Source: Thermoproteota archaeon (GTDB lineage: Archaea > Thermoproteota > Thermoprotei > Thermofilales > B9-G17). From it: DNA of 64,000 bases. Below the pieces are notes generated by a model, which saw nothing but the letters and a program-made list of their open reading frames with translations, did no database searches and had not been told where the DNA came from. Positions 27,528 to 49,085 of the stretch are shown here, one piece after another; position 1 is the first letter of the stretch, and each line of letters begins with the position of its first letter. The stretch spans positions 515,168 to 579,167 of the forward strand of contig JAPDJW010000002.1 of the NCBI GenBank assembly GCA_029258885.1. Reading direction: 5' to 3'. Position numbers and translations under genes: made by a program.

Positions 27528-27750
27528 CTGTTGATATTAATAACACTTTATTATGATACTTTCCTCTAATTAAATCTTTTCAAAGTTATTAACAAAATTA
27601 GACATAGATCATAATACGCATGTTGAATGTATTAGATATTTTAATCAAATATTCGAGTATTTGCTGGAACTATTGGTAATACATTATATTATCAATTAAA
27701 GATCATTGGGCGACAGTAAGCTTAATAGATAAATATAAATTTATAGAAAT

Positions 27751-28419: not shown

Positions 28420-28450
28420 CTTATTCAATATAGTTATATAAGTTTATGAA

Positions 28451-29011: not shown

Positions 29012-29065
29012 TTTATCAGATAAAGAAATATATATCTGATAAACGAATATAAATATGGGGGACTT

Positions 29066-29344
29066 ATGGAGGCTGTTCGTAGGAAGCTTAAGATGTATAG
29101 GGCTCTGGATAACGAGCATAGGTTGAGAATAGTGTTAACATTGGCCAGTAGGCCTGGTTTATCGTTTAACGAGTTAGCTGGAGAGCTTGGATTGGAGAGA
29201 GGTCTTCTGGCGTATCATTTAGCGGTTCTTAAGAATGCGGGTTTAGTGGAGCTGAAGTATGAGAGGAGGAGTAAGAAGCTTACAAAATACTATTTGACGG
29301 AGGATGGGGTTAAAGTATTAAGGGAGCTAGGTTTAATCCAGTGA
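29066..29344 (+). CDS. ArsR family wHTH transcriptional regulator
   Basis: 'YRALDNEHRLRIVLTLASRPGLSFNELAGELGLERGLLAYHLAVLKNAGLV'. Confidence 0.8.
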   Translation: MEAVRRKLKMYRALDNEHRLRIVLTLASRPGLSFNELAGELGLERGLLAYHLAVLKNAGLVELKYERRSKKLTKYYLTEDGVKVLRELGLIQ

Positions 29345-29417
29345 AACATAATAGATGGAACCTGTCAGTAAAGCTAGGGGCTAATGTAGGCTATCTAAAT
29401 TAAGGTTAACGGCGTTA

Positions 29418-31526: not shown

Positions 31527-34500
31527 CTCTCAATTCTCTTTTTTGAGAGTATTTCTGTAGCGCATGGTTAGAAGGGAGGGATATAGGTATAATTCAAACT
31601 GGAGGGGTGGGCTCTCAATTCTCTTTTTTAGAGTATTTCTGTAGCTCAAAAGAGAAGTCTTAATTCAGGAGCTTAAGGAACTCTAAATCCTTCTTCTCTC
31701 AATTCTCTTTTTTGAGAGTATTTCTGTAGCCTAACTGTGTTAAGATTTTAACGATTAGAGGCAAGGCTCTCTCCTCTCAATTCTCTTTTTTGAGAGTATT
31801 TCTGTAGCAGTTCTGGAGAAGGCGACCTGTCTACTTTGTTTACTTGGGCTTTCTCTCAATTCTCTTTTTTGAGAGTATTTCTGTAGCAGGCTTGAGGAAA
31901 AGGGTTGGATACTACATAAGGTGATAACTCTCAATTCTCTTTTTTGAGAGTATTTCTGTAGCTTCAAATAGAGGATTGGCTTTACGACAGAGAAATCGAG
32001 GAAATCTCTCAATTCTCTTTTTTGAGAGTATTTCTGTAGCAAAGATGTAGTCGAGAATAGATATATGAGAGAAAAATATGCGACTCTCAATTCTCTTTTT
32101 TGAGAGTATTTCTGTAGCAAGCCTGTTTTTCACACCGACAGCCCCGTGGCTGTAAAGAGCTCTCAATTCTCTTTTTTGAGAGTATTTCTGTAGCTGCAGT
32201 GGTGTTTGCGTATGTTATGTATCAGGCGTATATGGCCTCTCAATTCTCTTTTTTGAGAGTATTTCTGTAGCGCTTATGATGAAATAGATAAAGACGGGCC
32301 TAAATGCATAATCTCTCAATTCTCTTTTTTGAGAGTATTTCTGTAGCAGATAAGAGAATTCTGATGCTGAGAAATGAGATTATCATCTCTCAATTCTCTT
32401 TTTTGAGAGTATTTCTGTAGCCAGCAAAATTATTAGTTTTTCTAATTGGGGTTAAAAATGGCCTCTCAATTCTCTTTTTTGAGAGTATTTCTGTAGCAAG
32501 AAGAGAAGGAGACTGGTGGTGGCAAACCAACAGGTACACCTCTCAATTCTCTTTTTTGAGAGTATTTCTGTAGCATTTATGACAGAGACTTTAGTTACAC
32601 TGTCTCCAGAACAACCTCTCAATTCTCTTTTTTGAGAGTATTTCTGTAGCGTTACAGTAATGCTTGTGTATACAGACTTCACATAATTGCCTCTCAATTC
32701 TCTTTTTTGAGAGTATTTCTGTAGCTCAGAAAAAAGGAGAAAAAAGATACATACCTTTCAAAATTGACTCTCAATTCTCTTTTTTGAGAGTATTTCTGTA
32801 GCAGTTAAGAGAAAAGTATGGAGTGGCCACATGGAAACTAATTCCTCTCAATTCTCTTTTTTGAGAGTATTTCTGTAGCTATGGAGCTGTGAACCCGTGG
32901 GATGGCGTAGGATCCGCTACCTCTCAATTCTCTTTTTTGAGAGTATTTCTGTAGCAAAAGTATATAGCATTCACTACAGAGGAATGGGAAAAGTATCTCT
33001 CAATTCTCTTTTTTGAGAGTATTTCTGTAGCACGCCGCCATAACCAACAAGGAGTGGCGTGATGTGGTTATTGACTCTCAATTCTCTTTTTTGAGAGTAT
33101 TTCTGTAGCGAGCTAAAGGAAAAGGAGTTTACAGCCTATGACGTATCAGCTCTCAATTCTCTTTTTTGAGAGTATTTCTGTAGCATAATAAATGTATCCT
33201 ACAGGTATGATTCCTCCACTGACTCCTCTCAATTCTCTTTTTTGAGAGTATTTCTGTAGCGCAAGTTACACTATGCAATTCTCCATGAGCATAAGGCTAA
33301 GACTCTCAATTCTCTTTTTTGAGAGTATTTCTGTAGCCCCTGAGTATCGGGGGCTGGAGTTAATAGGCTTCCTTACTGTTCTCTCAATTCTCTTTTTTGA
33401 GAGTATTTCTGTAGCCAAGAGGATAGTTAAAGCTGGTATCCATCCATTAGAGAAGAGCTCTCAATTCTCTTTTTTGAGAGTATTTCTGTAGCGTGTATGT
33501 ATGAAGGATGTAATTGAAAGATTAAAGAAATTCTCTCAATTCTCTTTTTTGAGAGTATTTCTGTAGCCATGGAATTACGACTGTACACGTAAAGCTTTCA
33601 TTGAGATACGCTCTCAATTCTCTTTTTTGAGAGTATTTCTGTAGCAATAACATATAGGAAATTTGAGGAAATTCAGAAATTACCTAACTCTCAATTCTCT
33701 TTTTTGAGAGTATTTCTGTAGCCCAGATAATGCAAAGTACTTCCTTCGAAGATATTTCACAAACCTCTCAATTCTCTTTTTTGAGAGTATTTCTGTAGCA
33801 TAAAACTGAAAAGAAAATAGCCAATTACAATAATAAGATAACTCTCAATTCTCTTTTTTGAGAGTATTTCTGTAGCCCCGTATTAAAATTGCTTGAAGAA
33901 AAATATAATTTAAGATTTCTCTCAATTCTCTTTTTTGAGAGTATTTCTGTAGCTTAAAGATGAAATTGAAGCAAGAACAAAAGCCAATCAAAAGATCTCT
34001 CAATTCTCTTTTTTGAGAGTATTTCTGTAGCGAAGCTAATATAGTCTTTATAAAGCTCCTAGGATTTCTTAGCCTCTCAATTCTCTTTTTTGAGAGTATT
34101 TCTGTAGCGAATTGAATTTGAATTTGGAATACATAGGTTGGGTATAAACCTCTCAATTCTCTTTTTTGAGAGTATTTCTGTAGCTATCGTTCGGTTTAGA
34201 ATTTGAGTTTGGCATCCACAGATTAGGAACTCTCAATTCTCTTTTTTGAGAGTATTTCTGTAGCGCGACCACTATGCTGCACTCTCAGACAGTGTACACG
34301 GCACACTGGCTCTCAATTCTCTTTTTTGAGAGTATTTCTGTAGCAAAATTATTCATCATAAAATGCTTGAAAATATTCTTAGCGACTTACTCTCAATTCT
34401 CTTTTTTGAGAGTATTTCTGTAGCGCAGGAAGAGAAACGAGAAGATTGATGTTCTCCGTGAAGTATTGGACTCTCAATTCTCTTTTTTGAGAGTATTTCT

Positions 34501-34973
34501 GTAGCTTGGAAAGGATAGGCTCTACTAGTGTTCATTTAGACGGTAATCTCTCAATTCTCTTTTTTGAGAGTATTTCTGTAGCACACAATATAATATGTAT
34601 AGAGTGTCCAGAGAACTAGAAAGAACAATACTCTCAATTCTCTTTTTTGAGAGTATTTCTGTAGCCCAATTTTAAAGATACTTGAGGAAAAATATAATTT
34701 AAGATTTCTCTCAATTCTCTTTTTTGAGAGTATTTCTGTAGCTAAGCAATAGATTTGTAGCGAAAATAAACCAGCTTATAATTAAATCTCTCAATTCTCT
34801 TTTTTGAGAGTATTTCTGTAGCTGGCTGTGAACGGCAGGGTGGTTGAGCCTGAGTACTGGAACGCTCTCAATTCTCTTTTTTGAGAGTATTTCTGTAGCG
34901 TTTTTGTAGGAGTATAGGCGGTGAGGTTAAGGAGAAAGCTCTCAATTCTCTTTTTTGAGAGTATTTCTGTAGC
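31527..34973 (-). CRISPR. CRISPR array 1: 45 repeats of 35 nt, 44 spacers (39-50 nt)
   Basis: The + strand repeat is CTCTCAATTCTCTTTTTTGAGAGTATTTCTGTAGC (first copy 31527..31561, last 34939..34973). The reverse complement GCTACAGAAATACTCTCAAAAAAGAGAATTGAGAG ends in a handle-like ATTGAGAG. The AT-rich leader is on the right flank. The only degenerate copy (1-nt deletion, 31612..31645) is at the far left, so the array is read on the minus strand. Confidence 0.98.
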
Positions 34974-36472: not shown

Positions 36473-37417
36473 CTAGGAGTTTTCAAGGGTATTCTTAGCC
36501 CTTATATTGATGGGTGCTTCTTGCTGTTTTTGAATGATGTGTAGCACTATTGCGGATGCTAGGAATAAGATACCTATGACGCCTGCATTTAATCCCGCCA
36601 TAGCGTATTCCAGTATGTGTGCATAGGATTTCTCATACCATCGGAGCTCTATGAATAGTTGAACTTTAATGTCTACGGGTTTTAGGTAGCTCCTATTCAT
36701 CGATATCAATACTTTTAGCGTCGGCTCATTCAGCTCCATTTTCTCTACAACGTAGTATAGGTTTGTATTGTATTTCTCCCTCGGTACGGTGAACGTGAAT
36801 ATGTATAGTGATTTTCCTGTTCCATTAAAGTATGATTTAAACGGTAAGCCTGCCCTCCATTTCTCGAAGTTTTGTTCATCTAAGATGTATAGGTTGAATT
36901 TCTGTCCGTTCATCTCCTCAGCCCTTCCCGAAATCACTATTGAGGTTTTAGGGGGAAATGTTAGCGGCGTTTTTGAGGCGTATGCTGAATTATTGTATAC
37001 TGTAAGCGTATCTGTAAGGAATTCTTCTGTAATGTTTTCTAGAGCCATGTTTACTATCGTCATCTTCAGGCCCCTACCTAATTCGGAGTAGTTTATGGGA
37101 AAGGAGAAGATGTATCCGGAGACGTTCTCGGCCTTCACATAGGAGTCTATGTAGAGGCTGAAGGATTCCCTAACATCAGGGTATTCGTCGAGTACGCCGA
37201 TGCAGCCGAATACAGTTAAATTTCTCCTATTAGCAAGGGGTAATTGTAAGGTATAGGATATGGTATCACTGTATGCCTCGTGGATAGTTATGGTGCTATC
37301 CTTTAAGATTACGGCCTTAGGGCTCCACTCCTCGTAGGTAAATGGAATTAAAGCCACTACTAAGCTTAAGAATATAAGGGTTAATCCTATTAATCCTATG
37401 AATTCGGTAAACTTCAC
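36473..37417 (-). CDS. Membrane-anchored protein (N- and C-terminal TM helices, large external domain)
   Basis: 314-aa ORF. N-terminal 'IGLIGLTLIFLSLVVALIPF', C-terminal 'GLNAGVIGILFLASAIVLHII', several N-x-S/T sequons. GTG start. Confidence 0.55.
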   Translation of the reverse strand: MKFTEFIGLIGLTLIFLSLVVALIPFTYEEWSPKAVILKDSTITIHEAYSDTISYTLQLPLANRRNLTVFGCIGVLDEYPDVRESFSLYIDSYVKAENVSGYIFSFPINYSELGRGLKMTIVNMALENITEEFLTDTLTVYNNSAYASKTPLTFPPKTSIVISGRAEEMNGQKFNLYILDEQNFEKWRAGLPFKSYFNGTGKSLYIFTFTVPREKYNTNLYYVVEKMELNEPTLKVLISMNRSYLKPVDIKVQLFIELRWYEKSYAHILEYAMAGLNAGVIGILFLASAIVLHIIQKQQEAPINIRAKNTLENS

Positions 37418-37604: not shown

Positions 37605-39203
37605 GTGTCTAGTAGGCCGATTGGCTATGTGGCTTTCGATACTAAGGTTGATACCCAGTATTCTAGCCTCTCCGCTATAAACGTGTTTATGGATAATATT
37701 GATAAGATCCATAGGGGCAAGTATGTCCGCATAGACTCTACTGAGGGTAGGAGGTTTGTTGGGCAGGTTGTAGCTGGCCCATTCTATATGCCTGAGGGGC
37801 TTAGCCCCAGCTCTCACGTTGCTCAAGCTTTTACGATTAGGGGTGAGAGGTTTAAGTCTCTTCCACCCTACTACGCCGTCTTCTACGTTGAGATACTTGG
37901 TGAGTGGGAGAAGGAGTTTAAGTCCACCTATACTAAGCCTAGGCCTAAGTCCCCCGTATACGAGATGGGTGCTCTCGAGATATCGGATATCCTCGGCCTA
38001 AGCAAGGGTGACATGGTTTTAGGCCATCATATCGGGTATAAGGGCGTTAAGATTAAGCTTCCATCAAGCCACATGGACGTTTTACCTAGGAACGTCGGCA
38101 TATTCGGAACCGTTGGCAGCGGGAAGACTAATACAGCACAGGTTCTCATAGAGGAGGCCGCGAGACACAACTGGAGTGTTATAGTGATAGATATTGAGGG
38201 CGAATACACCTACATGGACTATCCGAACGACGACCCCGAGATGTATGAAGTACTGAAGAGCATATACGGCATCGAGCCGTTTAAAATAGAGAATTTCCAC
38301 GTATTCGTCCCCGTAGGTAGGGATTCTACGCGTGGAAGCGAGGCAGTTAGATTCGGTATACCGTTCTTCCAGATAAACCCGTACGTGTTGGCCGAGATTA
38401 TCAGGGCTACCGAGCCACAGCAGAGGTATCTGAGCATAGCTATAGGTGAGCTTTTAAGCCTAAGGGAGGGAAGCGGAGCCGAGGAGGCTACGGAGTTCGA
38501 GGAGTTCGCCTTCGGAGGCTCCAAGGAGGTTGAGCCTATAACTCTCGAGGAGGTAATTAACCATATTGAAAGTAAGATTAGCTCTACTAGGGATAGGGGT
38601 GTCGTCTCCGCCCTAACCGCGCTATCGACGAAGCTTAGGAGGCTTGACCTTTACGGCGTTATTGATGAGGGCAAGCCTATAGACTTCAGCTCTATACTTA
38701 AGCCAGGCCACGTTTCGGTCCTAGATGTAAGCGATGTTGAAGATAACGTTAGGAATATATGTATAGCCTGGCTCCTCGACACAGTGTTTAACCTTAAGCT
38801 TAGGGATGTCGAGAGGAAGCTGCCTAAAATCATGATCGTAATTGAGGAGGCACACGCCTTCGTAAGTAAGGAGGTTAGGGATAAGATGGAGGCTACGATC
38901 GACCTGCTTAAGAGGATAGCTAGGAGGGGTAGGAAGAGGTGGATATCCCTCGTATTCATATCCCAGCAGCCCGGCCACCTCCCGCCGGAGATATTCGAGC
39001 TATGTAACACTAGAATTATACATCAGCTTAGAAGCGAGATGAATATTAAGGCTATTAGGGAGACCACCGGAGCATTAACGAGGGAGCTTGCCCGGAATAT
39101 AGTCAACCTATCGAAGGGTGAGGCTATAGTCACATCCCCCGTACTAAGGTATCCAGTACTATGTAAGATAAGGCCAGCCGCTACCAAGAGGTTTAAACAC
39201 TAG
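37605..39203 (+). CDS. herA: HerA-family (FtsK/HerA superfamily, DUF87) ATPase
   Basis: HAS-barrel-like N-terminus 'IGYVAFD...GKYVRIDSTEGRRFVGQVV', Walker A 'GIFGTVGSGKTNTAQ', 'VIVIDIEGEY', Walker B 'IMIVIEEAHAFV', 'LVFISQQPGHLPPEIFELCNTRIIHQLR'. Confidence 0.85.
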   Translation: MSSRPIGYVAFDTKVDTQYSSLSAINVFMDNIDKIHRGKYVRIDSTEGRRFVGQVVAGPFYMPEGLSPSSHVAQAFTIRGERFKSLPPYYAVFYVEILGEWEKEFKSTYTKPRPKSPVYEMGALEISDILGLSKGDMVLGHHIGYKGVKIKLPSSHMDVLPRNVGIFGTVGSGKTNTAQVLIEEAARHNWSVIVIDIEGEYTYMDYPNDDPEMYEVLKSIYGIEPFKIENFHVFVPVGRDSTRGSEAVRFGIPFFQINPYVLAEIIRATEPQQRYLSIAIGELLSLREGSGAEEATEFEEFAFGGSKEVEPITLEEVINHIESKISSTRDRGVVSALTALSTKLRRLDLYGVIDEGKPIDFSSILKPGHVSVLDVSDVEDNVRNICIAWLLDTVFNLKLRDVERKLPKIMIVIEEAHAFVSKEVRDKMEATIDLLKRIARRGRKRWISLVFISQQPGHLPPEIFELCNTRIIHQLRSEMNIKAIRETTGALTRELARNIVNLSKGEAIVTSPVLRYPVLCKIRPAATKRFKH

Positions 39204-39846
39204 ATTTAAGGAGGGATTTAACTAGCCTGTATGCTTCAGCTATATCCAGCTTGGAATCCCTACTCCTCAGCCTATTTATCATTCTCCTTACAAACCTCCT
39301 GTCCTCACTCCTTAAGTCCTCAAGCTTTAACATCTCCCTTAGAGCGGATATCATGAGTAGTTTCGCATACTTCACCTGCCCGGTGGTGGTTGCTTTGCTT
39401 GCTATAGCCAGCGATTTTTCGGCTTTACCGAATATAATCTTTCTCCAATCTTTAGCCTTCCTCTCCCTCACTTCATATAGTGCATATCCCTCAAAGACTA
39501 TAGCTCCCCTTAACCTAAGCTGCTTAGGTAGTTTCTGCCTCCATGGGGCTACGTATACGTTCTCAGATATTCTCCTTAAACCGCATTTATCTAGGTTTTC
39601 TCCGACAGCTACTATTACCCTATCTCCCTTAACGCTGCCGCTTTCTAGGGCTTTTAACCCGCATAGGGTTAGTGTAATGTATCCTCCATCCACATTGATG
39701 TAGCCCTTCTCTATCAGGCTGTTTAATGCGCTCGATAATCCGCTTACATCTTCATCTATCGACTTAGCCAGATTGGAAATGCTTATTTTACCCTTCCTCT
39801 TAACTATCTAAAGGATATTTAGTTCAACTATGCTAAGTGTATCCAC
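39193..39846 (-). pseudogene. wHTH protein gene interrupted by an in-frame TAG (39808..39810); paralog of 39847..40548
   Basis: The track ORF starts at GTG 39693. The same frame continues upstream as 'IVKRKGKISISNLAKSIDEDVSGLSSALNSLIEKGYIN', and beyond the TAG as 'MDTLSIVELNIL' (GTG 39846). Together these form a complete wHTH. Confidence 0.55.
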
Positions 39847-40548
39847 ATGTATAGTTTAGAGCAATGCAGGATTTTAGGTTTACTGGTAATGTTTAGAAAT
39901 ATCCACCTAGCGGACATATCATTCTACCTGGACGCTAGGATGGATGATATTCTCACCTACTGTAGAAGCCTGCGGGGCTACGGCTTCCTAAAGCTCCATG
40001 AGAATTCAGCATTGATTACCGAGGCCGGAATACGTGCATGCCTAGGGGATCTCGCATTCAGTGGACGGAGATGGTTTATTCTAGTGGTGGATCCATCTGG
40101 TGCGCCGAGGGAGATGGATTTCGTGAACGTTAGGGGACAAGCATACGTAACTCCCTTTACCCTTCAGATGCTCGAGCTAATTAAGCTGCTCTATCGGGAG
40201 ATCTTCGTAGTCTCATCAAAGGCCTGCAGTATATGGATTAGGATGGCTGAGGATAGGATGCCGTACCGCAGAATTATAGACGTCATGAGGACTATAGAGG
40301 ATATTCAAGATAAACTATCTAGGCTGAGCTATCCCCGTTCGAGCAGATACGTTAAAGCTATCATATCCAGGCTTAACAGGTGTAGGAGGGAGCTTGAGAA
40401 GGCCGCTAGGATAGCTAAGCTTGATTTCAGGCTAGTAGGGCTAAATAGATCCTTCTCGAGGGATCCGCTAAGCTATTCTAGGGAGCTGTACGGGGTAGCC
40501 TTATCGTGTAGGGATAAGGTTCTACGTAGTGCTGAGGGTCTTAGATAG
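39847..40548 (+). CDS. wHTH domain protein, putative regulator (paralog of the gene on the opposite strand)
   Basis: 'LEQCRILGLLVMFRNIHLADISFYLDARMDDILTYCRSLRGYGFLKL' wHTH. The downstream region aligns by eye with the 39193..39846 product ('QAYVTP' vs 'NVYVAP'). Confidence 0.55.
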   Translation: MYSLEQCRILGLLVMFRNIHLADISFYLDARMDDILTYCRSLRGYGFLKLHENSALITEAGIRACLGDLAFSGRRWFILVVDPSGAPREMDFVNVRGQAYVTPFTLQMLELIKLLYREIFVVSSKACSIWIRMAEDRMPYRRIIDVMRTIEDIQDKLSRLSYPRSSRYVKAIISRLNRCRRELEKAARIAKLDFRLVGLNRSFSRDPLSYSRELYGVALSCRDKVLRSAEGLR

Positions 40549-40819
40549 CTATATCCTCCTCCTCATGTATCTCGTAGTTGTGTATTATCGTGAGGACTTT
40601 AGCTTCGTCTCGTCCACATATTGGTATGGCTATAACCCTAGCTTTACTTGGACCTATTATCCTCCTTATTTCGCTCATTATCCCCTTTATTTCGGCGGCT
40701 GAAGCCTCGAATAGGAATGCGCTGTACTGTATCCTATCTCCGCCCATATCCTTAAGGTATCTCCTAACCTCATTCCTAATGCTGTCATCTGATATGTCGT
40801 AGACTATAATGTACTTCAA
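40541..40819 (-). CDS. cas2: Cas2
   Basis: 'MKYIIVYDISDDSIRNEVRRYLKDMGGDRIQYSAFLFE' is a typical Cas2 N-terminal ferredoxin-fold signature. 92 aa. Confidence 0.85.
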   Translation of the reverse strand: MKYIIVYDISDDSIRNEVRRYLKDMGGDRIQYSAFLFEASAAEIKGIMSEIRRIIGPSKARVIAIPICGRDEAKVLTIIHNYEIHEEEDIAI

Positions 40820-40870
40820 GCTTCACCTAATACTTATATCCCTTTAAATCCTTATTATTTTTGAGGATAA

Positions 40871-41335
40871 ATGACGCGTATAATTAAGATGTTTCTCGAG
40901 GATAACGTGTTGTCGGTTTTAATAGATTTAGTTGCTCTGGATGAAACGTTTGGAGAACGCTCACGCGAAGTACTGGGTAAAGTTGTGTCTAGAGTGGAGG
41001 CCATCCTTCTAGCTCATGGAGGCAGAAACCTAGAGAGGGAGGAAGGTCTGACTTACGTTAAGGTTAAATGTAAAATTAATCCGAGGAGCTACGGCTACGT
41101 CGAGAGGAGCCTCACATCCCTAGAGGATGAAGTTAGGAGGAAGCTGGGGCTGGTTGAACACCTTGTTGCAGTATTTAGGAGTACCTCCAAGCTGTCTCCG
41201 TATCTCGTGAGCTTCTATGAGGTTTCCCCCGCGCTCCCTAGGAGCCCGGAGGGCTATAGAGTTACTTCACGGATAGCCAGAATCCTATCGAGGGAGAGGA
41301 GAGTTATCTGGGCGAGTACGGCCTCGGAGTCCTAG
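40871..41335 (+). CDS. Hypothetical ORF; its last ~40 codons appear to be the start of the Argonaute N-domain
   Basis: 154-aa ORF. From about 'LSPYLVSFYEVSPALPRSPEGYRV' it resembles the first strands of long pAgo N-domains. An in-frame GTG is present at 41207. Confidence 0.4.
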   Translation: MTRIIKMFLEDNVLSVLIDLVALDETFGERSREVLGKVVSRVEAILLAHGGRNLEREEGLTYVKVKCKINPRSYGYVERSLTSLEDEVRRKLGLVEHLVAVFRSTSKLSPYLVSFYEVSPALPRSPEGYRVTSRIARILSRERRVIWASTASES

Positions 41336-42120
41336 GCTATCTCGTTAAGCCGGGAGTTTCTATTGAGGATAGCTTTAAGGTATACGTTGGAGATAGGGAG
41401 TACACCTTAAATAAGCTGCGCGATAGGCGTCTCAACTTTAACCTTAGAGGCGATAGGGAGTTCTTCAAAAAGATCGTTGATAGGGGTATTAGAAGGAAGT
41501 TCCGTGAGCTAGGGTTTAGGGTTCGCGGATACATAGTGGTCTATAGCCAGCCCATATACTCATATGAGTATGTGGATGTTTGGCCAGCATGTGAGTTCCA
41601 GACTATAATTGATTCGGATGGCACGCTATCCCTCGCCTTATCGCCGAGACATATCATCGAGTCGATGAGGAGCATAATGGAGGACTACGAGAGCTTAGAG
41701 GAGCTGGTTAAAAGGAGGCGGGAGCTAGTGGGATGCAGTGTTAGAAGTATCGTTGATGGACAAGTATACAGGATAGTTTCGGTGCTCGATAAGAGGGCGA
41801 GGGATTCATTTGAGGAGCTCAACGGTTCAAGCCTATGCGAGTTCTATAGGGACTACAATATCGACCCAATGGAGCCAGCTATAGTTATCGAGAGGTATGG
41901 TTTCAGGCTCCTCCACGCTCCCTCACTTCTAAGGAGGATATATAGTCCAGCTGAACTGGCAGGTTTAGGCGTAGCTAGGGAGGTTATGAGAGCCATAAAG
42001 CTCAACCTGCTAAGGTGGAGCGATACCTCACGCAACATTGTTAGAACGTTATCTCCCATAGAGATAGATGGAATCGAGATAAGGTTCTCCGATCAGCCCG
42101 AGGTTCTCGAGGTGGCGTAG
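41260..42120 (+). CDS. Argonaute N-terminal half (N-L1-PAZ-L2), frame-disrupted near 41263; no canonical start before GTG 41536
   Basis: The frame is open from 41260. L1-like 'VDVWPACEFQTIIDSDGTLSLALSPRHIIESMRSIMEDY'. PAZ-like 'QVYRIVSVLDKRARDSFEELNGSSLCEFYRDYNIDPMEPAIVIERYGFRLLHAPSLLRRIYSPAEL'. It resembles PfAgo-type long pAgos as I remember that sequence. Confidence 0.6.
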   Translation, partial: SYFTDSQNPIEGEESYLGEYGLGVLGYLVKPGVSIEDSFKVYVGDREYTLNKLRDRRLNFNLRGDREFFKKIVDRGIRRKFRELGFRVRGYIVVYSQPIYSYEYVDVWPACEFQTIIDSDGTLSLALSPRHIIESMRSIMEDYESLEELVKRRRELVGCSVRSIVDGQVYRIVSVLDKRARDSFEELNGSSLCEFYRDYNIDPMEPAIVIERYGFRLLHAPSLLRRIYSPAELAGLGVAREVMRAIKLNLLRWSDTSRNIVRTLSPIEIDGIEIRFSDQPEVLEVA

Positions 42121-42121
42121 C

Positions 42122-43069
42122 ATCTACAGGGAGTTCTGTGATTGGGGCTACATCCTCGCTCCACGTAATGGGGAGATTATAGCTAAGGGACAGATTGAAG
42201 CGGGCAGATTTAAGCCCAAGGATAGGATAGTTCTCTCGGGCTCCGGCTCAATAAATGTCGATGCTGTGGCGAATATCGTCGGTGCGGGAGGCTCAATTTT
42301 GGTTGAGAAGGGATCTATACAGCTAGACTACTTCAACTCTATGTTCTCACGTAACCTGCTGGCTCAGCTCGCGTCTGTGGAGAATTCTGAGGTTAGGAGC
42401 AGAGTTGCCTCCTCTATATTGGAGGCTGCTGCATATAATAAGATTAGGGTTCTGGAGATACTGGAGGTTCCCGAGGACGTTAGGAGCAGGGTTGTCGGGG
42501 AGATTAAGGGGCTTATATCGATGCTTAAAGGAACTGTTCTAAGCAGATTGATGGGCGTTGAAGCTAGAATAACCAAGCTCTACTTCGAGGCTCTAAGATA
42601 CGTAATTCCCGTGGAGTATGGTTTTAAGGCTAGAACGCGTAGACCCCCTAAGGACTACTTTAGCGCTGCACTAAGCTATGGGAACATGCTCCTCTACAGA
42701 CACGTACTTAAGGAAATACTTAGGTTCGGCCTGGATCCTAGGCTAAGCTACCTCCATACGCCCTATAGGCATAGGCCATCGCTAGCGCTCGATATAGCCG
42801 AGGAGTTTAGGCAGGCCGTGGTTGATCTAGCAGTTATTCCGCTCTACACGTCGAGGTCTATGAGCATTAAGGGGGACTTCCAGGTTTTCGGCTCATCCAT
42901 ATACCTCAATAAGCGTGGAAACTTTAAGGTTAGGAGGAGCTTCCACCACAGGATGAACCTTAGAGTTAAGGGGAGGAGCCTCGCCGACGCAGTAAGAGGT
43001 CAGATTAGGAAGCTGCTGGAGTTCATCCACGGCGATAGGAGCGAATATACTCCGTTCAGAATTCAATAG
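42122..43069 (+). CDS. cas1: Cas1 (canonical catalytic motifs); conserved N-terminus lacks a start codon (track start GTG 42266)
   Basis: 'RIVLSGSGSINVDAVANIVGAGGSILV', 'GVEARITKLYFEAL', 'GLDPRLSYLHTPYRHRPSLALDIAEEFRQAVVD' (E, H, D/E motifs). Confidence 0.85.
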   Translation: MYREFCDWGYILAPRNGEIIAKGQIEAGRFKPKDRIVLSGSGSINVDAVANIVGAGGSILVEKGSIQLDYFNSMFSRNLLAQLASVENSEVRSRVASSILEAAAYNKIRVLEILEVPEDVRSRVVGEIKGLISMLKGTVLSRLMGVEARITKLYFEALRYVIPVEYGFKARTRRPPKDYFSAALSYGNMLLYRHVLKEILRFGLDPRLSYLHTPYRHRPSLALDIAEEFRQAVVDLAVIPLYTSRSMSIKGDFQVFGSSIYLNKRGNFKVRRSFHHRMNLRVKGRSLADAVRGQIRKLLEFIHGDRSEYTPFRIQ

Positions 43070-43313
43070 TATCTATTATAATGATATTTTCATAGCATCT
43101 CCTACATGGAAATATTATATCGACCCTCCCAGCCCCCTCCGCAACGATTCTCCTAATGTCGTTAATCATCCTCTCGGCGTTTTTCTCGTCCAGCTCTACC
43201 TCATAAACGCTGTACTCCCTGAAAACGCCGCCGTAGTCCTTAAGCCTATTCCTTAATCTATCCCTAAGCCTATCATATCCAACTGGGATATCGAAGACGA
43301 CTATTATCTTCAA
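43056..43313 (-). CDS. cas2: Cas2 (second copy)
   Basis: 'MKIIVVFDIPVGYDRLRDRLRNRLKDYGGVFREYSVYEVEL'. 4-nt overlap with the upstream cas1-like gene. Confidence 0.8.
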   Translation of the reverse strand: MKIIVVFDIPVGYDRLRDRLRNRLKDYGGVFREYSVYEVELDEKNAERMINDIRRIVAEGAGRVDIIFPCRRCYENIIIIDTIEF

Positions 43314-44179
43314 TAAACCGCCTCCTTAAACGGTATAAAGCCTCCAGCCGGATTCATCAGATAGGATGCAAGCCCCTTCGCAGCGGCCTTTATGTGTTTA
43401 AATAGAGGCATCCTCCTACCATCAGTATCCTCAACGTTCCTCTCAACGATATTCCTAAGATACTTCAGGAGAAGCCTCCTCCCCTCATAGCTACCTAAGT
43501 CGATGGATGAAAGGATGTCGGAACCAACTTCAACGAGGCAACGCCAGACAGTCGATGGCTCAAATACTAGAAGGAAATCCCTTGTAAGCGATCTCCTATT
43601 TACGAAGCCTATGTGTGGGGTTAAGCCAGCCCTAACCACGGCGTCCAGACATTCTGCTTCAATAAAATAGCTGAGATACTGGATAACTGACTCGATTAGG
43701 CTAAGTTTTACTCCAAGATATCTTGATAAAAGCTTAAGCGCATTAACCCTAACTTCCTCCAGCTCCCCCTCGGCCCTGAATGGAAGGTTAAGTCTCGAGA
43801 AAAAGGCGCAGAGGTTATGGTTGAATGCCTCCCTAATGCATGAAGCTATCTCCTCAGCTCTCGAGGTAGAGTACTGGGTTAATATCAGCTCAACGTGCTT
43901 CCTTTGAAGCATCCCCGTAAACCACGCTATCCTATCCTTAAATACCAGAGCTATGGTTACGTTATCCTCTGAAGCCAGCGATAGAGCCGATGTACTTATC
44001 CTCCTACATCCATCCAATACTAGGAGGTAGGCAGTTAAGGAGGCTATCTCACGTCTACGATCTCCAGCCTCAACTACGAAGCGCCTACTCCTACGGCCTA
44101 AATTAAAGCCATTGTACGCTATCCAGTAGCTCCTCCTCAACCAATCCCCTTGATCATAGTATATAGTTTCCTTATCCAC
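43310..44179 (-). CDS. cas1: Cas1-like protein, divergent (conserved His replaced)
   Basis: 'GLTPHIGFVNRRSLTRDFLLVFEPSTV' aligns with the Cas1 'GldP.lGflH....sLa.DlmEefR' block but has Asn in place of His. 289 aa. Confidence 0.65.
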   Translation of the reverse strand: MDKETIYYDQGDWLRRSYWIAYNGFNLGRRSRRFVVEAGDRRREIASLTAYLLVLDGCRRISTSALSLASEDNVTIALVFKDRIAWFTGMLQRKHVELILTQYSTSRAEEIASCIREAFNHNLCAFFSRLNLPFRAEGELEEVRVNALKLLSRYLGVKLSLIESVIQYLSYFIEAECLDAVVRAGLTPHIGFVNRRSLTRDFLLVFEPSTVWRCLVEVGSDILSSIDLGSYEGRRLLLKYLRNIVERNVEDTDGRRMPLFKHIKAAAKGLASYLMNPAGGFIPFKEAVY

Positions 44180-44967
44180 GGCCTAGGCTCAACCCTACCC
44201 TCCCTAATAATGATCACGCCCCGCTCCTCAAGCTCTTTAATTCTCTCGTACCCTATAATATCCTTTAAATCGGCCAGTGATATGTGTGGGAAAATCCTAT
44301 CTATGAGGGAGAGGAATTCCTCCTTTACAGTTATCGGCAGCAGGGGGAGTGCCACAACCTCCCTGAAGGACTCATGTATATAATATACCTTATCCGCTCC
44401 CATAACCATTGAGATAATGGTGGCGAATGAGGTTTCAGGCTTAAAGCCAGCAGTAGCATTAACGTAGACCCTGTATCCAGCATTCTTCTTACTCTTAACG
44501 ACCCCAGCAATTTTATCTATTAAATTGGATAAAGCCTCATCGAAGAGCGAGGCGCCGAGCCCGAAGCCCCTAACCCTAACGGGCTCATTAACGTAGTACC
44601 CCCTAGACTTAAGGTGTTCATAAACTATCCTTCCACATAGATATCCGGTGCCGGTATCAGTGGTATATAGCCCTATCTCAATATCCTCAATCCTCGATGG
44701 ACCGTAGAGGTCGGTGAACCTGTAGAATGCGTTAAGCTCAGCACTAGCACTATAGGGATCAGAGTTCACATACTCCAGAAGCCTATCGAAAACCTTGGAA
44801 CCCCTATGGGCGGAAGCCTCAGCCTTCTTCTGATCATCATGGTCGGGTGGAAGCCTACCCCACGAACTTATTTTAAGCTCCTCAGCCTCATCCTTAAAAG
44901 TCCTTGCAAAGTTTAGGAGGATTGCAGTTCCAACCGTAACCACGTGAAATACCTTCATAGATACCAC
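44137..44967 (-). CDS. CARF-domain protein of the APE2256 type with probable C-terminal wHTH
   Basis: 'FHVVTVGTAILLNFA', 'SAELNAFY', 'YVNATAGFKPETS' (CARF signature). C-terminal 'ISLADLKDIIGYERIKELEERGVIIIREGRV'. Confidence 0.6.
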   Translation of the reverse strand: MVSMKVFHVVTVGTAILLNFARTFKDEAEELKISSWGRLPPDHDDQKKAEASAHRGSKVFDRLLEYVNSDPYSASAELNAFYRFTDLYGPSRIEDIEIGLYTTDTGTGYLCGRIVYEHLKSRGYYVNEPVRVRGFGLGASLFDEALSNLIDKIAGVVKSKKNAGYRVYVNATAGFKPETSFATIISMVMGADKVYYIHESFREVVALPLLPITVKEEFLSLIDRIFPHISLADLKDIIGYERIKELEERGVIIIREGRVEPRPWIRKLYTMIKGIG

Positions 44968-44997
44968 AAAAATATAACAGCATAACGAGTATATAAA

Positions 44998-45711
44998 ATG
45001 ATGCTACGTGGATACAGTCGCCTAGCAGCCTCAGGCATAAATAGAATGGTTAGAGTAACGGATGTCACGTTATACCTCTTCTGTCCGCGGAAACTCTACC
45101 TAGTGGGCTTCCTAGGGATAAGAGGCAGGCCGACTAGGGAGAGCATTATGGGTAAATTGGCCCACTACGCATACCTAAGGGCAAGCATCCTAAAGATAAC
45201 CGAGAATAGGGTGGAGGAGGAGAGCGTGAATATAGCTAGAGAGGCAGTCGAGAAGAAGCTTACGGAGGGGCTAAGCGATACGGAGGTCAAGGAGATAGTT
45301 GTAAAAACCTTAAGGTTTAGGGCTGAAAACCCGATTACGGGTGGGGTTGAGGTCGAGAAGTACGTTGAATCGGTAAGGCTGGGGTTAAACGGACAGATAG
45401 ACCTAATGGAGGAACATACGCCAGTGGAGGTAAAGTACAAGTCCAGAGCTGAATACAGGGATCTAATACAGCTAACACTCTACACACTACTACTCGAGGA
45501 CGTCTACGGGTGGGATATAGATTACGGCTACATCGATCTACTTAAGGCTTCAAGAAGGTTAAGAATTGAAGTAAATAATAGGCTTAGAGGTGATGCGCTT
45601 AAGCTTAGGGATAAAGTGCAGGAGACAATACTAATGGGGACGTATCCGCCAGCTAGGGATAAGTGTAGGGGATGCGACCTAAAGATAGAGTGTAGATCCC
45701 TCTTCCACTAG
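44998..45711 (+). CDS. cas4: Cas4 (RecB-like nuclease with Fe-S cysteines)
   Basis: N-terminal Cys in 'LYLFCPRKLYL', 'IDLMEEHTPVEVKYK' (D..EVK), 'QLTLYTLLLE' (QxxxY), C-terminal 'CRGCDLKIEC'. Confidence 0.85.
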   Translation: MMLRGYSRLAASGINRMVRVTDVTLYLFCPRKLYLVGFLGIRGRPTRESIMGKLAHYAYLRASILKITENRVEEESVNIAREAVEKKLTEGLSDTEVKEIVVKTLRFRAENPITGGVEVEKYVESVRLGLNGQIDLMEEHTPVEVKYKSRAEYRDLIQLTLYTLLLEDVYGWDIDYGYIDLLKASRRLRIEVNNRLRGDALKLRDKVQETILMGTYPPARDKCRGCDLKIECRSLFH

Positions 45712-46910
45712 AGGAACCAGAGCCTAGAATAATACTCCTCCGACGGCGATACACCCAACCTAAGGAAGCTACATATCCTATGGGCATACAAAGTCGTTAT
45801 TGGAAGCCTAGTTGAAGCAAACGCTGAAGCCCAGTGTAGCTCGCTCAACCAGTACACATCCCTGGCAATATCATACATACTAACCTCCCAGTTAGATGCC
45901 TCAGCCAGCTCAACAACAACCGGCCTAACCAATCCAGACACATCAATATAGGGGTGCTCCGGGAAGCCTGAGGTAACCACAAGATACCTATATTTATCAA
46001 GCACATAGAACGTACCTTTCTCCGGATTAGTAACTCTTCTCCCAACCCTCCTGGTAACCCTAGGCACAGCCCTCTTCTTAACCTCAACAAAAACCCAGTT
46101 AGATGCAACGCCCTCATCAACAGCCGAGTCCATAACATCCCTAACCGCTTCAAGCTCAACATCAAAGGTAGAGCCATCCCTATGAACAACTATTAAATTA
46201 ACCCTACCAGCATGCCTATGAATAACGTCGAGAGCGAGCGTAAGCACATTCCTAATCGAATAGATAACCTCAACCCCGGGATTAAACTCGAAGCGCCAGT
46301 CGAAGAATATGCCCCCATCAAACACGAAGACTGTTACAACAACGTTGTTACCGACAGTATCCAAGCCAATATACGCATCACCTAAAAGCCTATCCCCCAA
46401 AACCCAAGGTATTCCCCCAGCCTTACAGTAGATAGACAGAGCTAAATTAAAGAGAACATAGGATTTACCCGCAAGCCTTCTAATAGTAGAGTATGTAACC
46501 ATTTGACTAGGAATCCCACGTAGAGCTAAAGCCTGCTTAATAGGAACATAGGGATCCTCCTCAAAACCCGGATAGTTTTCATCGGGAACAGCTACGATAG
46601 CTACATCAACATCCTCAATTGAATCGATGACATCAGCGTACCTATCATATGATTCAAAGAAGTACTCAACGTCCCCAACCCTACAGCCAAACCATCCAGT
46701 AAGACCTCCAAAACCCCTAACACCATAGATAAGGTTATCCATGAGGACACGAGAGTAGCTATACATTCCACGAGGACAGATAAAACAGAGCCTAACAGCA
46801 TCAGGACCGGAGAAAGGACCGAAGCCGAGTTTAAACCCCTCATAGGGGAAAATAGAGGTACCACTCCCAAACCTTAAAACAGGCCTAGAGAAGACGCCTC
46901 CCCTAACCAT
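45708..46910 (-). CDS. Argonaute MID-PIWI half (400 aa) with apparent DEDH catalytic tetrad
   Basis: MID pocket pattern 'PYVPIKQ...GIPSQMV...SIYCKAGGIPWVL'. PIWI 'AYIGLDTV' (D), 'GVEVIYSIRNVL' (E), 'LIVVHRDGS' (D), 'LPITTLYAHRICSF' (H). C-terminal 'RLWFL'. Confidence 0.8.
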   Translation of the reverse strand: MVRGGVFSRPVLRFGSGTSIFPYEGFKLGFGPFSGPDAVRLCFICPRGMYSYSRVLMDNLIYGVRGFGGLTGWFGCRVGDVEYFFESYDRYADVIDSIEDVDVAIVAVPDENYPGFEEDPYVPIKQALALRGIPSQMVTYSTIRRLAGKSYVLFNLALSIYCKAGGIPWVLGDRLLGDAYIGLDTVGNNVVVTVFVFDGGIFFDWRFEFNPGVEVIYSIRNVLTLALDVIHRHAGRVNLIVVHRDGSTFDVELEAVRDVMDSAVDEGVASNWVFVEVKKRAVPRVTRRVGRRVTNPEKGTFYVLDKYRYLVVTSGFPEHPYIDVSGLVRPVVVELAEASNWEVSMYDIARDVYWLSELHWASAFASTRLPITTLYAHRICSFLRLGVSPSEEYYSRLWFL

Positions 46911-46975: not shown

Positions 46976-47386
46976 CTATAAGCTGCCTCTAGGAAAGAGG
47001 GGACCCCCAGACACAAGCTTCAACACGTATTTAAAGTACTCCCTAAAGTGATCCGCCAAATAACTCCTCTCAGAGGACTTAAGCTCAGCAAGCTGTTCCT
47101 CTATAAACACATCATCGTCATCGGGCTCCATTCTGAAATACTTCGTAAGAAACTTGGCAGTAACCAGTATGTAGAAGTCGCCGAGACTTAAAATAGCGTA
47201 GGCTGGCGGAATACCCGAACCATAAATCCTCACATGATACTTCCACGCCTCAAGAGCCTCCTGAGCCATCGGATACACATCACCACTCTCATACCCACAC
47301 CTCGGACAAACAACACCCTCCCTAAACACAGCGTAGCGAGTACCACAAGACGGACACCTATAATTATACGAAGAATGATACGTCAC
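46976..47386 (-). CDS. Zn-ribbon protein, upstream neighbour of the MID-PIWI gene
   Basis: 'CPSCGTRYAVFREGVVCPRCG' (CxxC...CxxC) plus a ~95-aa uncharacterised domain. A minus-strand TTTTATATATGGG lies ~35 nt upstream of the ATG. Confidence 0.6.
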   Translation of the reverse strand: MTYHSSYNYRCPSCGTRYAVFREGVVCPRCGYESGDVYPMAQEALEAWKYHVRIYGSGIPPAYAILSLGDFYILVTAKFLTKYFRMEPDDDDVFIEEQLAELKSSERSYLADHFREYFKYVLKLVSGGPLFPRGSL

Positions 47387-47898: not shown

Positions 47899-49085
47899 GC
47901 TACAATAAAACTCTCAAAAAAGAGAATTGAGAGGCCTTGTGATGTGGAAGTATAGTCGCTTGATGGCATCTGCTCTGCTACAATAAAACTCTCAAAAAAG
48001 AGAATTGAGAGGCAATATTGGCTGTGTCGTTGCCTATAAGATACAATGGGTATATCGCTACAATAAAACTCTCAAAAAAGAGAATTGAGAGAGGCAGTCA
48101 TATCGTGTTGCCTTCTCCATCCTCTTGGCAAGTATCGCTACAATAAAACTCTCAAAAAAGAGAATTGAGAGATTTTTCCACAATATGGTGAATTCACTTG
48201 AGTGTTCTGTCTTAGCTACAATAAAACTCTCAAAAAAGAGAATTGAGAGATATACTCGTCAATTTTCGTTAACGCCTCTGTTAAGTCCTCGCTACAATAA
48301 AACTCTCAAAAAAGAGAATTGAGAGATATAATCTAGTTTCATCTACCTCGCTTTCAAAGAGACCAACGCTACAGAAATACTCTCAAAAAAGAGAATTGAG
48401 AGTAGCATTTTGAGTAATTTAACGATTTTATCCCACTCTTCTGCTACAGAAATACTCTCAAAAAAGAGAATTGAGAGTCTTCATCAGTTACCTTGAATGG
48501 CAAGTTCTCTATTCTTACTTGCTACAGAAATACTCTCAAAAAAGAGAATTGAGAGAGACATAGTCTTTTACCACAGTAATGTAGCCGTCAATAATGCTAC
48601 AGAAATACTCTCAAAAAAGAGAATTGAGAGGCATGCCTAGTCGTAACCGGCGGCATACTAATTCTCATAAGCGCTACAGAAATACTCTCAAAAAAGAGAA
48701 TTGAGAGTATAGAAGCGTTTACTTTTCTTTTCTCCTCATTAAGCTTATTGCTACAGAAATACTCTCAAAAAAGAGAATTGAGAGGATAGGGATTTTAGGT
48801 TATTCTAATTCTTTTTTCAATTTCGCTACAGAAATACTCTCAAAAAAGAGAATTGAGAGGAATTATGCTCAGTTTTTAGGTATTGCTTAATGACTTTTAT
48901 GCTACAGAAATACTCTCAAAAAAGAGAATTGAGAGAGCATGTTAGTGTACATCTCTACAACATCCTTTAATGTCATGCTACAGAAATACTCTCAAAAAAG
49001 AGAATTGAGAGATACTGATGTAGAATTCTTTCGAGGTTCTTTTAAATACTGCTACAATCCTAATAAATGACCTAAGGAGGATTGG
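47899..49085 (+). CRISPR. CRISPR array 2: 15 full repeats + 1 degenerate terminal repeat, 15 spacers (39-45 nt)
   Basis: Repeats 1-6 are GCTACAATAAAACTCTCAAAAAAGAGAATTGAGAG. Repeats 7-15 are GCTACAGAAATACTCTCAAAAAAGAGAATTGAGAG (last full copy 48977..49011). The degenerate copy is GCTACAATCCTAATAAATGACCTAAGGAGGATTGG at 49051..49085. The leader is on the left. Confidence 0.97.

Follow-up and report, generated by a model that had tools for sequence, protein, structure and literature searches.

The window, by which we mean the whole 64,000-nucleotide stretch of archaeal DNA that was analysed, contains a Cas1 gene whose complete coding sequence (315 codons plus a stop; 42122..43069, forward strand) covers an N-terminal beta domain and the catalytic domain, as delimited by profile matches, homolog alignment and dN/dS (omega). 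It is accompanied by two Cas2 genes and by CRISPR arrays of 44 and 15 repeats. One Cas2 gene (43056..43313, reverse strand) is convergent with Cas1; its homologous gene in L001 matches PF09827, and omega does not exceed 0.03 in the comparison with either L001 or L085. The second Cas2 gene (40541..40819, reverse strand) is divergent from a gene encoding the N-L1-PAZ part of a split Argonaute (hereafter the N-half), is conserved upstream of that gene in related loci, and has homologous genes in L145, L149 and L150 that match PF09827. On the other side of Cas1 lie, on the reverse strand, a divergent Cas1-like paralog (43310..44179; 35.9 bits against PF01867, weakly matched by TIGR00287), which is conserved in related loci and shows Sd 35 and Nd 18 (synonymous and nonsynonymous differences) against L085, and a CARF/Csx1-family protein (Cas_APE2256; 44137..44967; PF09651, 126 bits), followed by a Cas4 nuclease on the forward strand (44998..45711; PF01930; TIGR00372, 83 bits). 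The 400-aa MID-PIWI half of the split Argonaute (45708..46910, reverse strand) matches PF02171 and residues 441-734 of CbAgo (E=1.4e-21), and GLD, RDG and YAH motifs were seen in it by eye; nearly all members of its family, which comprises about 30 clusters, are about 400 aa long (the few shorter ones come from small contigs), and not one is a full-length Argonaute. Array 1 (31527..34973, forward strand) holds 44 identical 35-nt repeats, and array 2 (47899..49011, reverse strand) holds 15 repeats in inverted orientation. These long perfect-repeat arrays flank the module, which is consistent with recently active adaptation.

The N-half gene is broken in the window. Its 5' fragment (40871..41335, forward strand) corresponds to positions 1-151 of the N-half family profile and is colinear with P0036, the intact 416-aa protein of L001, but ends prematurely by a frameshift; its 3' part (41260..42120, forward strand), covering L1-PAZ-L2 and ending at TAG 42118-42120, corresponds to profile positions 146-417. 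The frameshift is a 1-nt deletion in a GGG run (41307..41309, forward strand), where eight of eight related contigs have GGGG and orthologs read W-G-E (TGG GGC GAG). The alignment of the N-half-Cas1 region (40871-43069) contains no other indel, and among the nine contigs the window is the only one without an intact N-half ORF. Unless the deletion is a homopolymer sequencing error, coupling of Cas1 to a full-length N-half cannot operate here. The Argonaute relationship of the N-half is visible only by a family profile and by alignment-based AF2 modelling: single N-half sequences gave no match in Pfam, NCBIfam or PDB, and single-sequence AF2 reached a pLDDT of 37. The profile of 27 family members matches the L1-PAZ region of KmAgo (E=4e-8, residues 78-287), PfAgo (E=1.2e-6), CbAgo and TtAgo (residues 86-272), and an AF2 model built on the alignment (pLDDT 91, pTM 0.73) returned CpAgo, TtAgo, CbAgo and Siwi as top Foldseek matches (E 2e-14 to 1e-12, about 320-357 columns). 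In the scan of GTDB species representatives, from which the window's own lineage is absent, the best match was 41% identical. The earlier note had described this gene as an Argonaute N-PAZ half, and the profile and fold matches agree with it on that point; that the gene is frameshifted in the window, and is not one ORF there, had escaped the note.

The open Cas1 frame begins at 42083, directly after a TAA (42080..42082, forward strand) that lies inside the N-half codons ATA AGG and is kept in both of the allele groups described below. An incidental ATG at 42068, also in the Cas1 frame, was ruled out as a start, because the conserved TAA 42080 intervenes before Cas1. Up to 42265 the open frame contains no ATG, GTG or TTG, and the first canonical start is the GTG at 42266..42268 (forward strand; ORF 42266..43069), an internal valine codon that is not conserved as a start: allele group B has GTA there and offers no canonical start before a TTG at codon +58. 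In the window the near-cognate codons of the frame are limited to ATC (42092, 42122 and 42152), ATT (42176 and 42194) and ATA (42179, 42227 and 42251), and a CTG stands at 42098 in the other eight contigs, where the window has CCG. The N-half frame ends at TAG 42118..42120 (forward strand), in a position homologous to that of the N-half stop in orthologs, and Cas1 follows in the +1 frame with 38 nt of overlap between the two open frames. Reading of the frames thus confirmed the coordinates given in the earlier note both for the start-free stretch and for the overlap. Two Shine-Dalgarno (SD)-like motifs, GAGGT at 42100-42104 and GAGGTG at 42107-42112 (42100..42112, forward strand), lie in the codons for conserved E-V residues at the C-terminus of the N-half, and GAGGTG is also found 5' of the TTG start of Cas1 in L088. 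The ATC at 42122..42124 (forward strand) is one substitution from ATG and lies 1 nt past the TAG and 9 nt past GAGGTG, with a longish spacing of 11 nt from the GAGG core. All nine contigs are identical over 42100-42141, inside a block that is about 9% diverged on either side. An Rfam scan of the window gave no match.

Codons 42122-42265 encode 48 aa, IYREFCDWGYILAPRNGEIIAKGQIEAGRFKPKDRIVLSGSGSINVDA, and judged from profiles and alignment this stretch is a genuine Cas1 N-terminus. The protein scores 157.1 bits against PF01867 (cut-off 22.3) and 164.8 bits against TIGR00287 (cut-off 71.7), with residues 26-308 on positions 26-325 of the latter model, and the HMM of the Cas1 family is matched from position 2. 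Full-length homologs are 311-322 aa long, align across the 48-residue N-segment and have their Met at codons 42116-42128. The catalytic columns E160, H225, D237 and E240 are invariant in the homolog alignment, the window sequence included, and Cas1 is without indels in every contig compared. The proteins reported by gene callers in the startless clade are truncated (267 or 256 aa), and the 267-aa product from GTG 42266 still scores as PF01867. The TIGR00287 match and the homolog alignment uphold the earlier assignment of codons 42122..42265 to the Cas1 N-terminus, although the string then given also took in the Val of GTG 42266.

Comparison with related loci places the junction in context. In nine distinct orthologous loci the N-half and Cas1 are two separate genes, and in all nine Cas1 has an ATG, GTG or TTG at its N-terminus, within -9..+1 codons of model position 1, where it overlaps or abuts the N-half stop (for example ATGA, TAGTG, ATGTCTGA and TGAggaTTG). 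The relative frame of the two genes in these loci is 0, +1 or +2, and the overlaps range from -26 to +6 nt. The C-terminus and stop position of the N-half align with those of the orthologs, so that the stop can be taken as ancestral. The canonical start at the Cas1 N-terminus is missing in the window and in eight other contigs of the same clade, which come from several samples (JGI, ENA, Logan), fall together with the window into two allele groups about 9% apart here, and carry an identical startless junction. The roughly 30 representatives of N-half clusters include no fusion protein; N-half homologs are at most 464 aa long, bar one weak 710-aa match, and none carries Cas1. Among Cas1 relatives no Argonaute-like N-terminal extension was found, and the distant Cas1 matches include Cas4-Cas1 fusions (P0019, P0021 and P0022).

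Selection was assessed between the allele groups by comparing the window with L085. The Cas1 body shows Sd 44 and Nd 20 (omega 0.12), and the 48-codon startless N-segment shows Sd 9 and Nd 9 (omega 0.26). Neutrality was tested by permutations preserving the substitution spectrum, which gave p<0.001 for the Cas1 body and p=0.014 for the N-segment, the latter value being drawn from 18 substitutions and effectively one deep comparison between two allele groups. By these measures Cas1, including its 48 N-terminal codons, is under purifying selection, and it is therefore most likely still translated. The argument that Cas1 must be functional for having accumulated no stops was dropped, because 34% of the permutations were stop-free given the 78:5 transition bias. 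A high-divergence block (about 41900-43200) spans the junction on both sides, and since it is continuous through the junction, the latter was presumably inherited with its flanks and not pasted in. The strain comparisons are mosaic, which leaves room for a recent spread of the junction by a short gene-conversion patch. The window copy has further peculiarities, namely the frameshifted N-half, CCG for CTG at 42098 and three nonsynonymous changes of its own, and these lesions hint at decay of this copy.

We consider the most plausible account, in which our confidence is about even, to be a coupled two-gene junction at which the Cas1 start was lost throughout the clade and Cas1 is weakly translated from a non-canonical codon, and not an Argonaute-Cas1 fusion. 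The N-half gene of the split long Argonaute ends at TAG 42118-42120, and Cas1 would begin there as a separate protein. Its canonical start has been lost in one clade of uncultured hot-sediment Thermoprotei (the window and the eight related contigs), in the simplest history by a single ATG to ATC change at 42122. Cas1 would then be made at low efficiency from a non-canonical codon, through either initiation or reinitiation after termination; ATC 42122 is the best candidate, given its location relative to the homolog starts and its conservation in nine contigs, with CTG 42098 as a possible alternative in the other eight contigs. Both the codon that starts Cas1 and the contribution of reinitiation are what we infer from these features. 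Termination-reinitiation or other non-canonical initiation, for instance at ATC 42122, was among the options listed in the earlier note, and it is the one favoured by the ortholog starts, the GAGGTG motif and the selection on Cas1. NCBI translation table 11 includes ATC and CTG among its rare initiation codons. The start codons documented in archaea are AUG, GUG and UUG (PMC7531240), and a review on archaeal recoding describes aIF1 as discriminating against non-canonical starts (PMC8211752), which together count against initiation at AUC or CUG. The longish spacing from the GAGG core also counts against ATC. The junction resembles known termination-reinitiation pairs (Huber et al. 2019, PMC6728339; PMC10666635) in that the genes are co-directional, the stop and the putative restart lie within a few nt, and an SD motif is located inside the end of the upstream gene; the orthologous loci even have the textbook ATGA and TAGTG overlaps. 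Unlike in those pairs, the restart codon in this clade is not AUG, GUG or UUG, and its presumed identity as AUC comes from sequence comparison. Genes that are coupled stop to start in this way often code for subunits of the same complex (PMC10666635).

A possible but rather unlikely alternative is that Cas1 is a start-loss pseudogene or dispensable in this clade, with the intact frame and low dN/dS left over from a recent loss or caused by a recent spread of the junction patch through short-tract recombination onto Cas1 alleles that were still diverged, and with the Cas1-like paralog performing adaptation. A canonical start is, after all, missing in 9/9 contigs and the called proteins are truncated (267 or 256 aa), the mosaic strain comparisons and the additional lesions of the window copy are in keeping with it, and a stop-free frame is uninformative in this respect. 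The second Cas1-like gene and the second Cas2 gene are both present and conserved, and the former could carry the integrase function. However, the continuity of the high-divergence block through the junction speaks against a pasted patch, the 64 substitutions behind the omega of 0.12 put the Cas1 body far from neutrality, from which the N-segment also departs (p=0.014), and a decaying gene is hard to reconcile with the complete lack of Cas1 indels in any contig and with intact catalytic columns.

A +1 ribosomal frameshift at GCG-TAG-C, either programmed or tolerated at a low level, which would join N-L1-PAZ (416 aa) and Cas1 (315 aa) into one protein of about 730 aa, appears improbable. In such an event the ribosome would pause at TAG with tRNA-Ala on GCG in the P site and read AGC in the +1 frame, giving the junction peptide ...PEVLEVASIYREF.... 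Cas1 does lie exactly +1 to the N-half, whose stop falls at the Cas1 N-terminus; selection acts on the entire Cas1 frame, startless N-segment included; 42100-42141 is invariant; and GAGGTG stands immediately 5' of the putative shift site. Programmed +1 shifts take place with a stop codon in the A site (prfB, antizyme) or with a non-slipping GCG codon in the P site (Ty3), so that the SD-like motif recalls the prfB stimulator and the GCG recalls the Ty3 site. To our knowledge, no programmed +1 frameshift has been documented so far in archaea. The junction shares with the bacterial prfB, antizyme and yeast Ty3 sites a +1 downstream ORF, here overlapping and without a start of its own, a junction stop, a 5' SD-like motif and GCG before the stop, but it differs from them in having no re-pairing slippery codon, in an SD spacing unlike that of prfB, in lacking a 3' structure and in not being conserved in orthologs; the likeness is thus a resemblance only. 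Specifically, GCG is unable to re-pair in the +1 frame (CGU), the downstream RNA structure is neither stable nor unusual (z=0.18), and TAG-C is the commonest stop context in the window and so, by usage, no weak terminator. The SD-like motif can equally be accounted for as the ribosome-binding site of Cas1 (compare L088). In the nine distinct orthologous loci the two genes are separate, Cas1 has a start of its own and three relative frames occur; no N-half homolog carries Cas1 and no Cas1 relative carries an Argonaute-like extension, and the frameshift within the N-half makes a full fusion impossible in the window. Natural Cas4-Cas1 fusions, such as those of P0019, P0021 and P0022, and RT-Cas1 fusions show that Cas1 tolerates large N-terminal partners, but these are true single ORFs, and an Argonaute-Cas1 single ORF was not found among N-half or Cas1 relatives. 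The proposal that the locus encodes a former or programmed Ago(N-PAZ)-Cas1 +1 fusion therefore received no positive support, and we regard it as quite improbable that this clade has turned a coupled junction into a recoding site at which a +1 shift at GCG-UAG-C would yield a covalent Argonaute(N-L1-PAZ)-Cas1 protein. The frameshifting cases discussed in the relevant part of the archaeal recoding review are -1 events (PMC8211752), which also counts against a +1 shift.

It is very unlikely that the cell makes an N-terminally truncated Cas1 beginning at the earliest canonical codon (in the window, GTG 42266), even though the 267-aa product is still recognised by PF01867: the codon is GTA in allele group B, which has no start before the TTG at codon +58, and the 48-residue N-segment is kept by all homologs and is under purifying selection. 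As known from Cas1-Cas2 structures, Cas1 depends on its N-terminal beta domain to dimerise and to contact Cas2, which counts against a truncated protein. The suggestion that Cas1 naturally begins at 42266 fails for the same reasons, as the homologs reach to about 42116-42128. A 1-nt sequencing or assembly error that conceals an ordinary start can hardly be the explanation, for although GTG 42112 lies one base off the Cas1 frame with GAGGT 7 nt upstream, and removal of one G would give MRSIYREF... (compare MRKIEEF... of P0002), the eight other contigs (JGI, ENA, Logan) have identical bases and no indel, and removing that G would also destroy the N-half stop at its ortholog-homologous position. 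The comparison with orthologous loci proposed in the earlier note returned ordinary starts in nine loci and no hidden indel at the junction of the startless clade. An extra G after GTG 42112 was likewise rejected as the origin of the junction, because the same insertion would have to create the N-half stop exactly at the orthologous position.

Prokaryotic Argonautes (pAgos) have been described in CRISPR-cas loci by cas1/cas2, as in Methanopyrus kandleri (MK1311) and in the Marinitoga piezophila MpAgo group (PMC1462988, PMC2743648, PMC5995195, PMC6299218). The present locus is similar to these in that an Argonaute is located within a Cas1/Cas2/Cas4 adaptation module that has CRISPR arrays and a type III effector module next to it. 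It differs in that the Argonaute is split into N-L1-PAZ (about 416 aa) and MID-PIWI (about 400 aa) halves, in that the N-half is directly coupled to Cas1, and in the presence of two Cas1 paralogs and two Cas2 genes. No description of a split Argonaute with a coupled Cas1 was found in the literature searched. The question of whether Argonautes hand over DNA fragments to CRISPR adaptation has been raised for pAgos beside cas1/cas2 (PMC5995195).

If Cas1 is dead here, the startless junction would be a mere start-loss mutation in an otherwise interesting module, and if the +1 fusion were true, there would be a physical link between the guide-end-binding module of an Argonaute and the CRISPR integrase. 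Under the coupled junction that we favour, a smaller point is that a conserved and selected archaeal gene is apparently expressed without AUG, GUG or UUG, and should reinitiation account for this, the output of Cas1 would depend strictly on translation of the Argonaute half. The partner immediately upstream of Cas1, coupled to it stop to start, is the N-L1-PAZ portion of a split and putatively catalytic pAgo, both in the nine distinct related loci and in this clade, and this coupling is an unusually direct genetic hint of a link between Argonaute and CRISPR adaptation.

The startless Cas1 frame is real and conserved. As the earlier note had described, ORF 42266..43069 belongs to a frame that opens at 42083, right after TAA 42080-42082, contains no ATG, GTG or TTG until GTG 42266, and lies +1 to the N-half (the N-L1-PAZ part of a split long Argonaute, pAgo), which ends at TAG 42118-42120 in the neighbouring frame, with 38 nt shared between the two open frames. 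The complete set of near-cognates in the Cas1 frame before 42266 consists of ATC (42092, 42122 and 42152), ATT (42176 and 42194), and ATA (42179, 42227 and 42251). Translated from 42122, Cas1 scored 157 bits against PF01867 and 165 bits against TIGR00287, its residue 26 (counted from 42122) fell on position 26 of the profile model, and the catalytic columns E160, H225, D237, and E240 (alignment numbering) were retained.

Cas1 follows an N-half on the same strand in nine other distinct loci (L002, L003, L004, L005, L088, L090/L091, L092, L093, and L094; L090/L091 is a single locus on two contigs and was counted once). In 9/9 of these, the Cas1 start is an ATG, GTG or TTG located -9 to +1 codons from model position 1, and in 9/9 it overlaps or adjoins the stop of the N-half, the junction reading ATGA in L002 and L090/L091, TAGTG in L005, ATGTCTGA in L093, GTGACTGA in L092, TGAggaTTG in L088, and TAGcggtGTG in L094. 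Relative to the N-half, Cas1 lies in frame 0, +1 or +2 depending on the locus; thus, no frame relation between the two genes is conserved. Because the N-half C-termini align and stop at equivalent positions (...DQPEVLEVA against ...EEPIVSELL and ...EEPVAIEV before the stop), TAG 42118-42120 is, judging from these alignments, the ancestral N-half stop.

We consider the startless Cas1 to be best explained by an ordinary coupled gene pair that has lost the canonical Cas1 start and in which low-level translation continues. The most economical history would be one substitution, ATG to ATC, at 42122-42124. Because ATC 42122 lies one base past the N-half stop, at the start position of the homologs and 9 nt 3' of GAGGTG (42107-42112), our preferred reading is weak initiation on this non-canonical codon, or reinitiation on it after termination, a step that we infer. 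The codons for the conserved Glu-Val at the N-half C-terminus make up GAGGTG, which is also found 5' of the TTG start in L088. ATC and CTG are listed as rare starts in translation Table 11. In the archaeal literature covered (PMC7531240, PMC8211752), the documented starts are AUG, GUG, and UUG, and aIF1 discriminates against other codons. At 42098-42100, the window has CCG, and 8/8 related contigs read CTG, which could be a near-cognate Cas1-frame start; the difference is silent for the N-half. The stretch 42100-42120 holds a tandem SD-like pair, GAGGTtctcGAGGTG, followed by a two-codon mini-ORF, GTG-GCG-TAG, in the N-half frame, and GAGGT lies 7 nt upstream of its GTG 42112.

A +1 frameshift at GCG-TAG-C, giving an N-half-Cas1 fusion of ~730 aa, would likewise translate the Cas1 N-segment (42122-42265, the 48 codons upstream of the first canonical start), but GCG is unable to re-pair in +1, there is no structure downstream (z=0.18), TAG-C is the commonest stop context within the window, and the orthologs give no hint of a fusion, with no N-half relative fused to Cas1 and no Cas1 relative carrying an Argonaute-like extension. 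An Argonaute-Cas1 fusion is not the best explanation. The earlier note had named, as a finding that would refute it, Cas1 homologs whose natural start corresponds to 42266; this is not the case, because the full-length homologs (P0002-P0010 and P0012, with 311-322 aa) match the entire N-terminal segment and their initiator Met maps to window codons 42116-42128. The insertion of one G after GTG 42112 would formally explain the frame and was rejected, because without that G the ancestral N-half stop would be lost as well. An assembly artefact at the junction is ruled out by independent assemblies, as it is covered by eight more contigs, drawn from JGI, ENA, and Logan samples (L001, L085, and L145-L150), 42100-42141 is invariant in 9/9 contigs including the window, and none of the eight has a canonical Cas1 start. 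Relatives go under the MAG names Thermoprotei archaeon or Thermofilum sp., several of the record names indicating Guaymas Basin samples.

These contigs form two allele groups, A (window, L001, and L150) and B (L085 and L145-L149). The Cas1 proposed by gene callers is truncated to 267 aa in group A and 256 aa in group B, where GTG 42266 is GTA and no canonical start occurs before TTG at codon +58. The groups are ~9% apart in a block from ~41900 to 43200, and since this block extends to both sides of the junction, the junction appears to have been inherited together with its flanks. For the Cas1 body (42266-43054), comparison of the window with L085 gave Sd 44, Nd 20, dS 0.29, and omega 0.12, and permutations keeping the strongly transition-biased substitution spectrum gave an expected Nd of 42 vs the observed 20 (p <0.001). 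The N-segment gave Sd 9, Nd 9, dS 0.34, and omega 0.26, with an expected Nd of 13.2 vs the observed 9 (p 0.014), and its replacements are conservative (I/V, R/K, N/D, and A/V). Cas1, including the part before any canonical start, has thus been under purifying selection since the divergence of the groups, both of which are startless; this result is effectively one deep comparison with only 18 substitutions in the N-segment. The absence of stop codons in Cas1 is uninformative, because 34% of permutations were stop-free. Cas1 substitutions in the strain comparison comprised 78 transitions vs 5 transversions. Window positions 38900-46100 are strongly mosaic against L085 and L001, blocks of 8-13% divergence (39300-39700, 40900-41100, 41900-43300, and 43700-44100) alternating with blocks of <2%, a pattern that indicates recombination among co-occurring strains.

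The earlier note had placed an Argonaute N-half upstream of Cas1; profile and fold bear out the identity, and in the window this gene is broken into two frames, 40871..41335 and 41260..42120. At 41307-41309, the window has GGG vs GGGG in 8/8 related contigs, and this 1-nt deletion, unique to the window and the sole indel between it and them, is either a strain-specific inactivation of the N-half or a homopolymer error in the source contig of 646,815 bp. The N-half had no match in Pfam, NCBIfam or single-sequence PDB searches. The intact ortholog of L001 (P0036, 416 aa), used as the query of a full HMMER scan, found 30 cluster representatives of 353-464 aa, except one weak 710-aa match and two short fragments. 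A profile of 27 members matched the L1-PAZ part of long pAgos of known structure (KmAgo with E=4e-8, followed by PfAgo, CbAgo, and TtAgo), and an AlphaFold model on the family alignment (pLDDT 91) had Argonautes as best structural matches (E about 1e-14). The partner MID-PIWI gene (45708-46910, minus strand, 400 aa) matches PF02171 and CbAgo residues 441-734 (E=1.4e-21), with GLD, RDG, and YAH motifs visible; nearly all of its ~30 family clusters are ~400 aa, and none is full-length. The long pAgo is therefore split clade-wide into N-L1-PAZ (~416 aa) and MID-PIWI (~400 aa), with ~30 clusters each. In the more distant loci L095, L097, and L099, MID-PIWI directly follows the N-half, the order that a long pAgo gene would be expected to leave on fission. 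Two architectures occur among loci including these three, L004, L005, and L092: N-half-Cas1 with PIWI elsewhere, and N-half adjacent to PIWI.

The 12-kb cas/Ago island (about 35.3-47.4 kb) has a G+C content of 43-50% vs 31-41% in its flanks and is flanked by a pair of mutually inverted CRISPR arrays that share a 35-nt repeat, one at 31527-34973 (44 repeats) and the other, in inverted orientation, at 47899-49011 (15 repeats, the six island-proximal ones having 3 substitutions in common). It is adjoined by a type III (III-D-like) effector module (19620-30776) with a Csx10-like gene (19620-20831), Cas10 (21588-24275), a 452-aa Csx1 (29418-30776), and Csx7-type RAMPs. From low to high coordinates, the island contains a HerA-like ATPase, two unknown genes, Cas2b (40541-40819, -), N-half and Cas1 (+), Cas2a (43056-43313, -), a very divergent Cas1-like gene (43310-44179, -; PF01867 only 36 bits), Csx1/CARF (-), Cas4 (+), and MID-PIWI (-). 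The core order Cas2b / N-half-Cas1 / Cas2a-Cas1-like / PIWI is found again in related loci. The two Cas2 genes and the additional Cas1-like gene suggest a heteromeric or dual integrase. The Cas1-like gene is conserved in related loci and is also under purifying selection (Sd 35 / Nd 18 vs L085). A HerA/CedD-like ATPase and several unknown ORFs accompany the module (36473-37417, 37605-39203, 39193-39693, 39847-40548, and 46976-47386); HerA also occurs in L004, L145, and L146, ORF 39847-40548 has a homolog upstream of Cas2b in L002, L004, and L091, and ORF 46976-47386 carries CxxC...CxxC motifs.

Argonaute genes in CRISPR-cas loci beside cas1/cas2 are known from M. kandleri (MK1311) and the MpAgo group (PMC1462988, PMC2743648, PMC5995195, PMC6299218), and we found no description in the searchable literature of a split pAgo with its N-PAZ half stop-start coupled to Cas1. 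The startless Cas1 is a modest curiosity, and the module around it is interesting.
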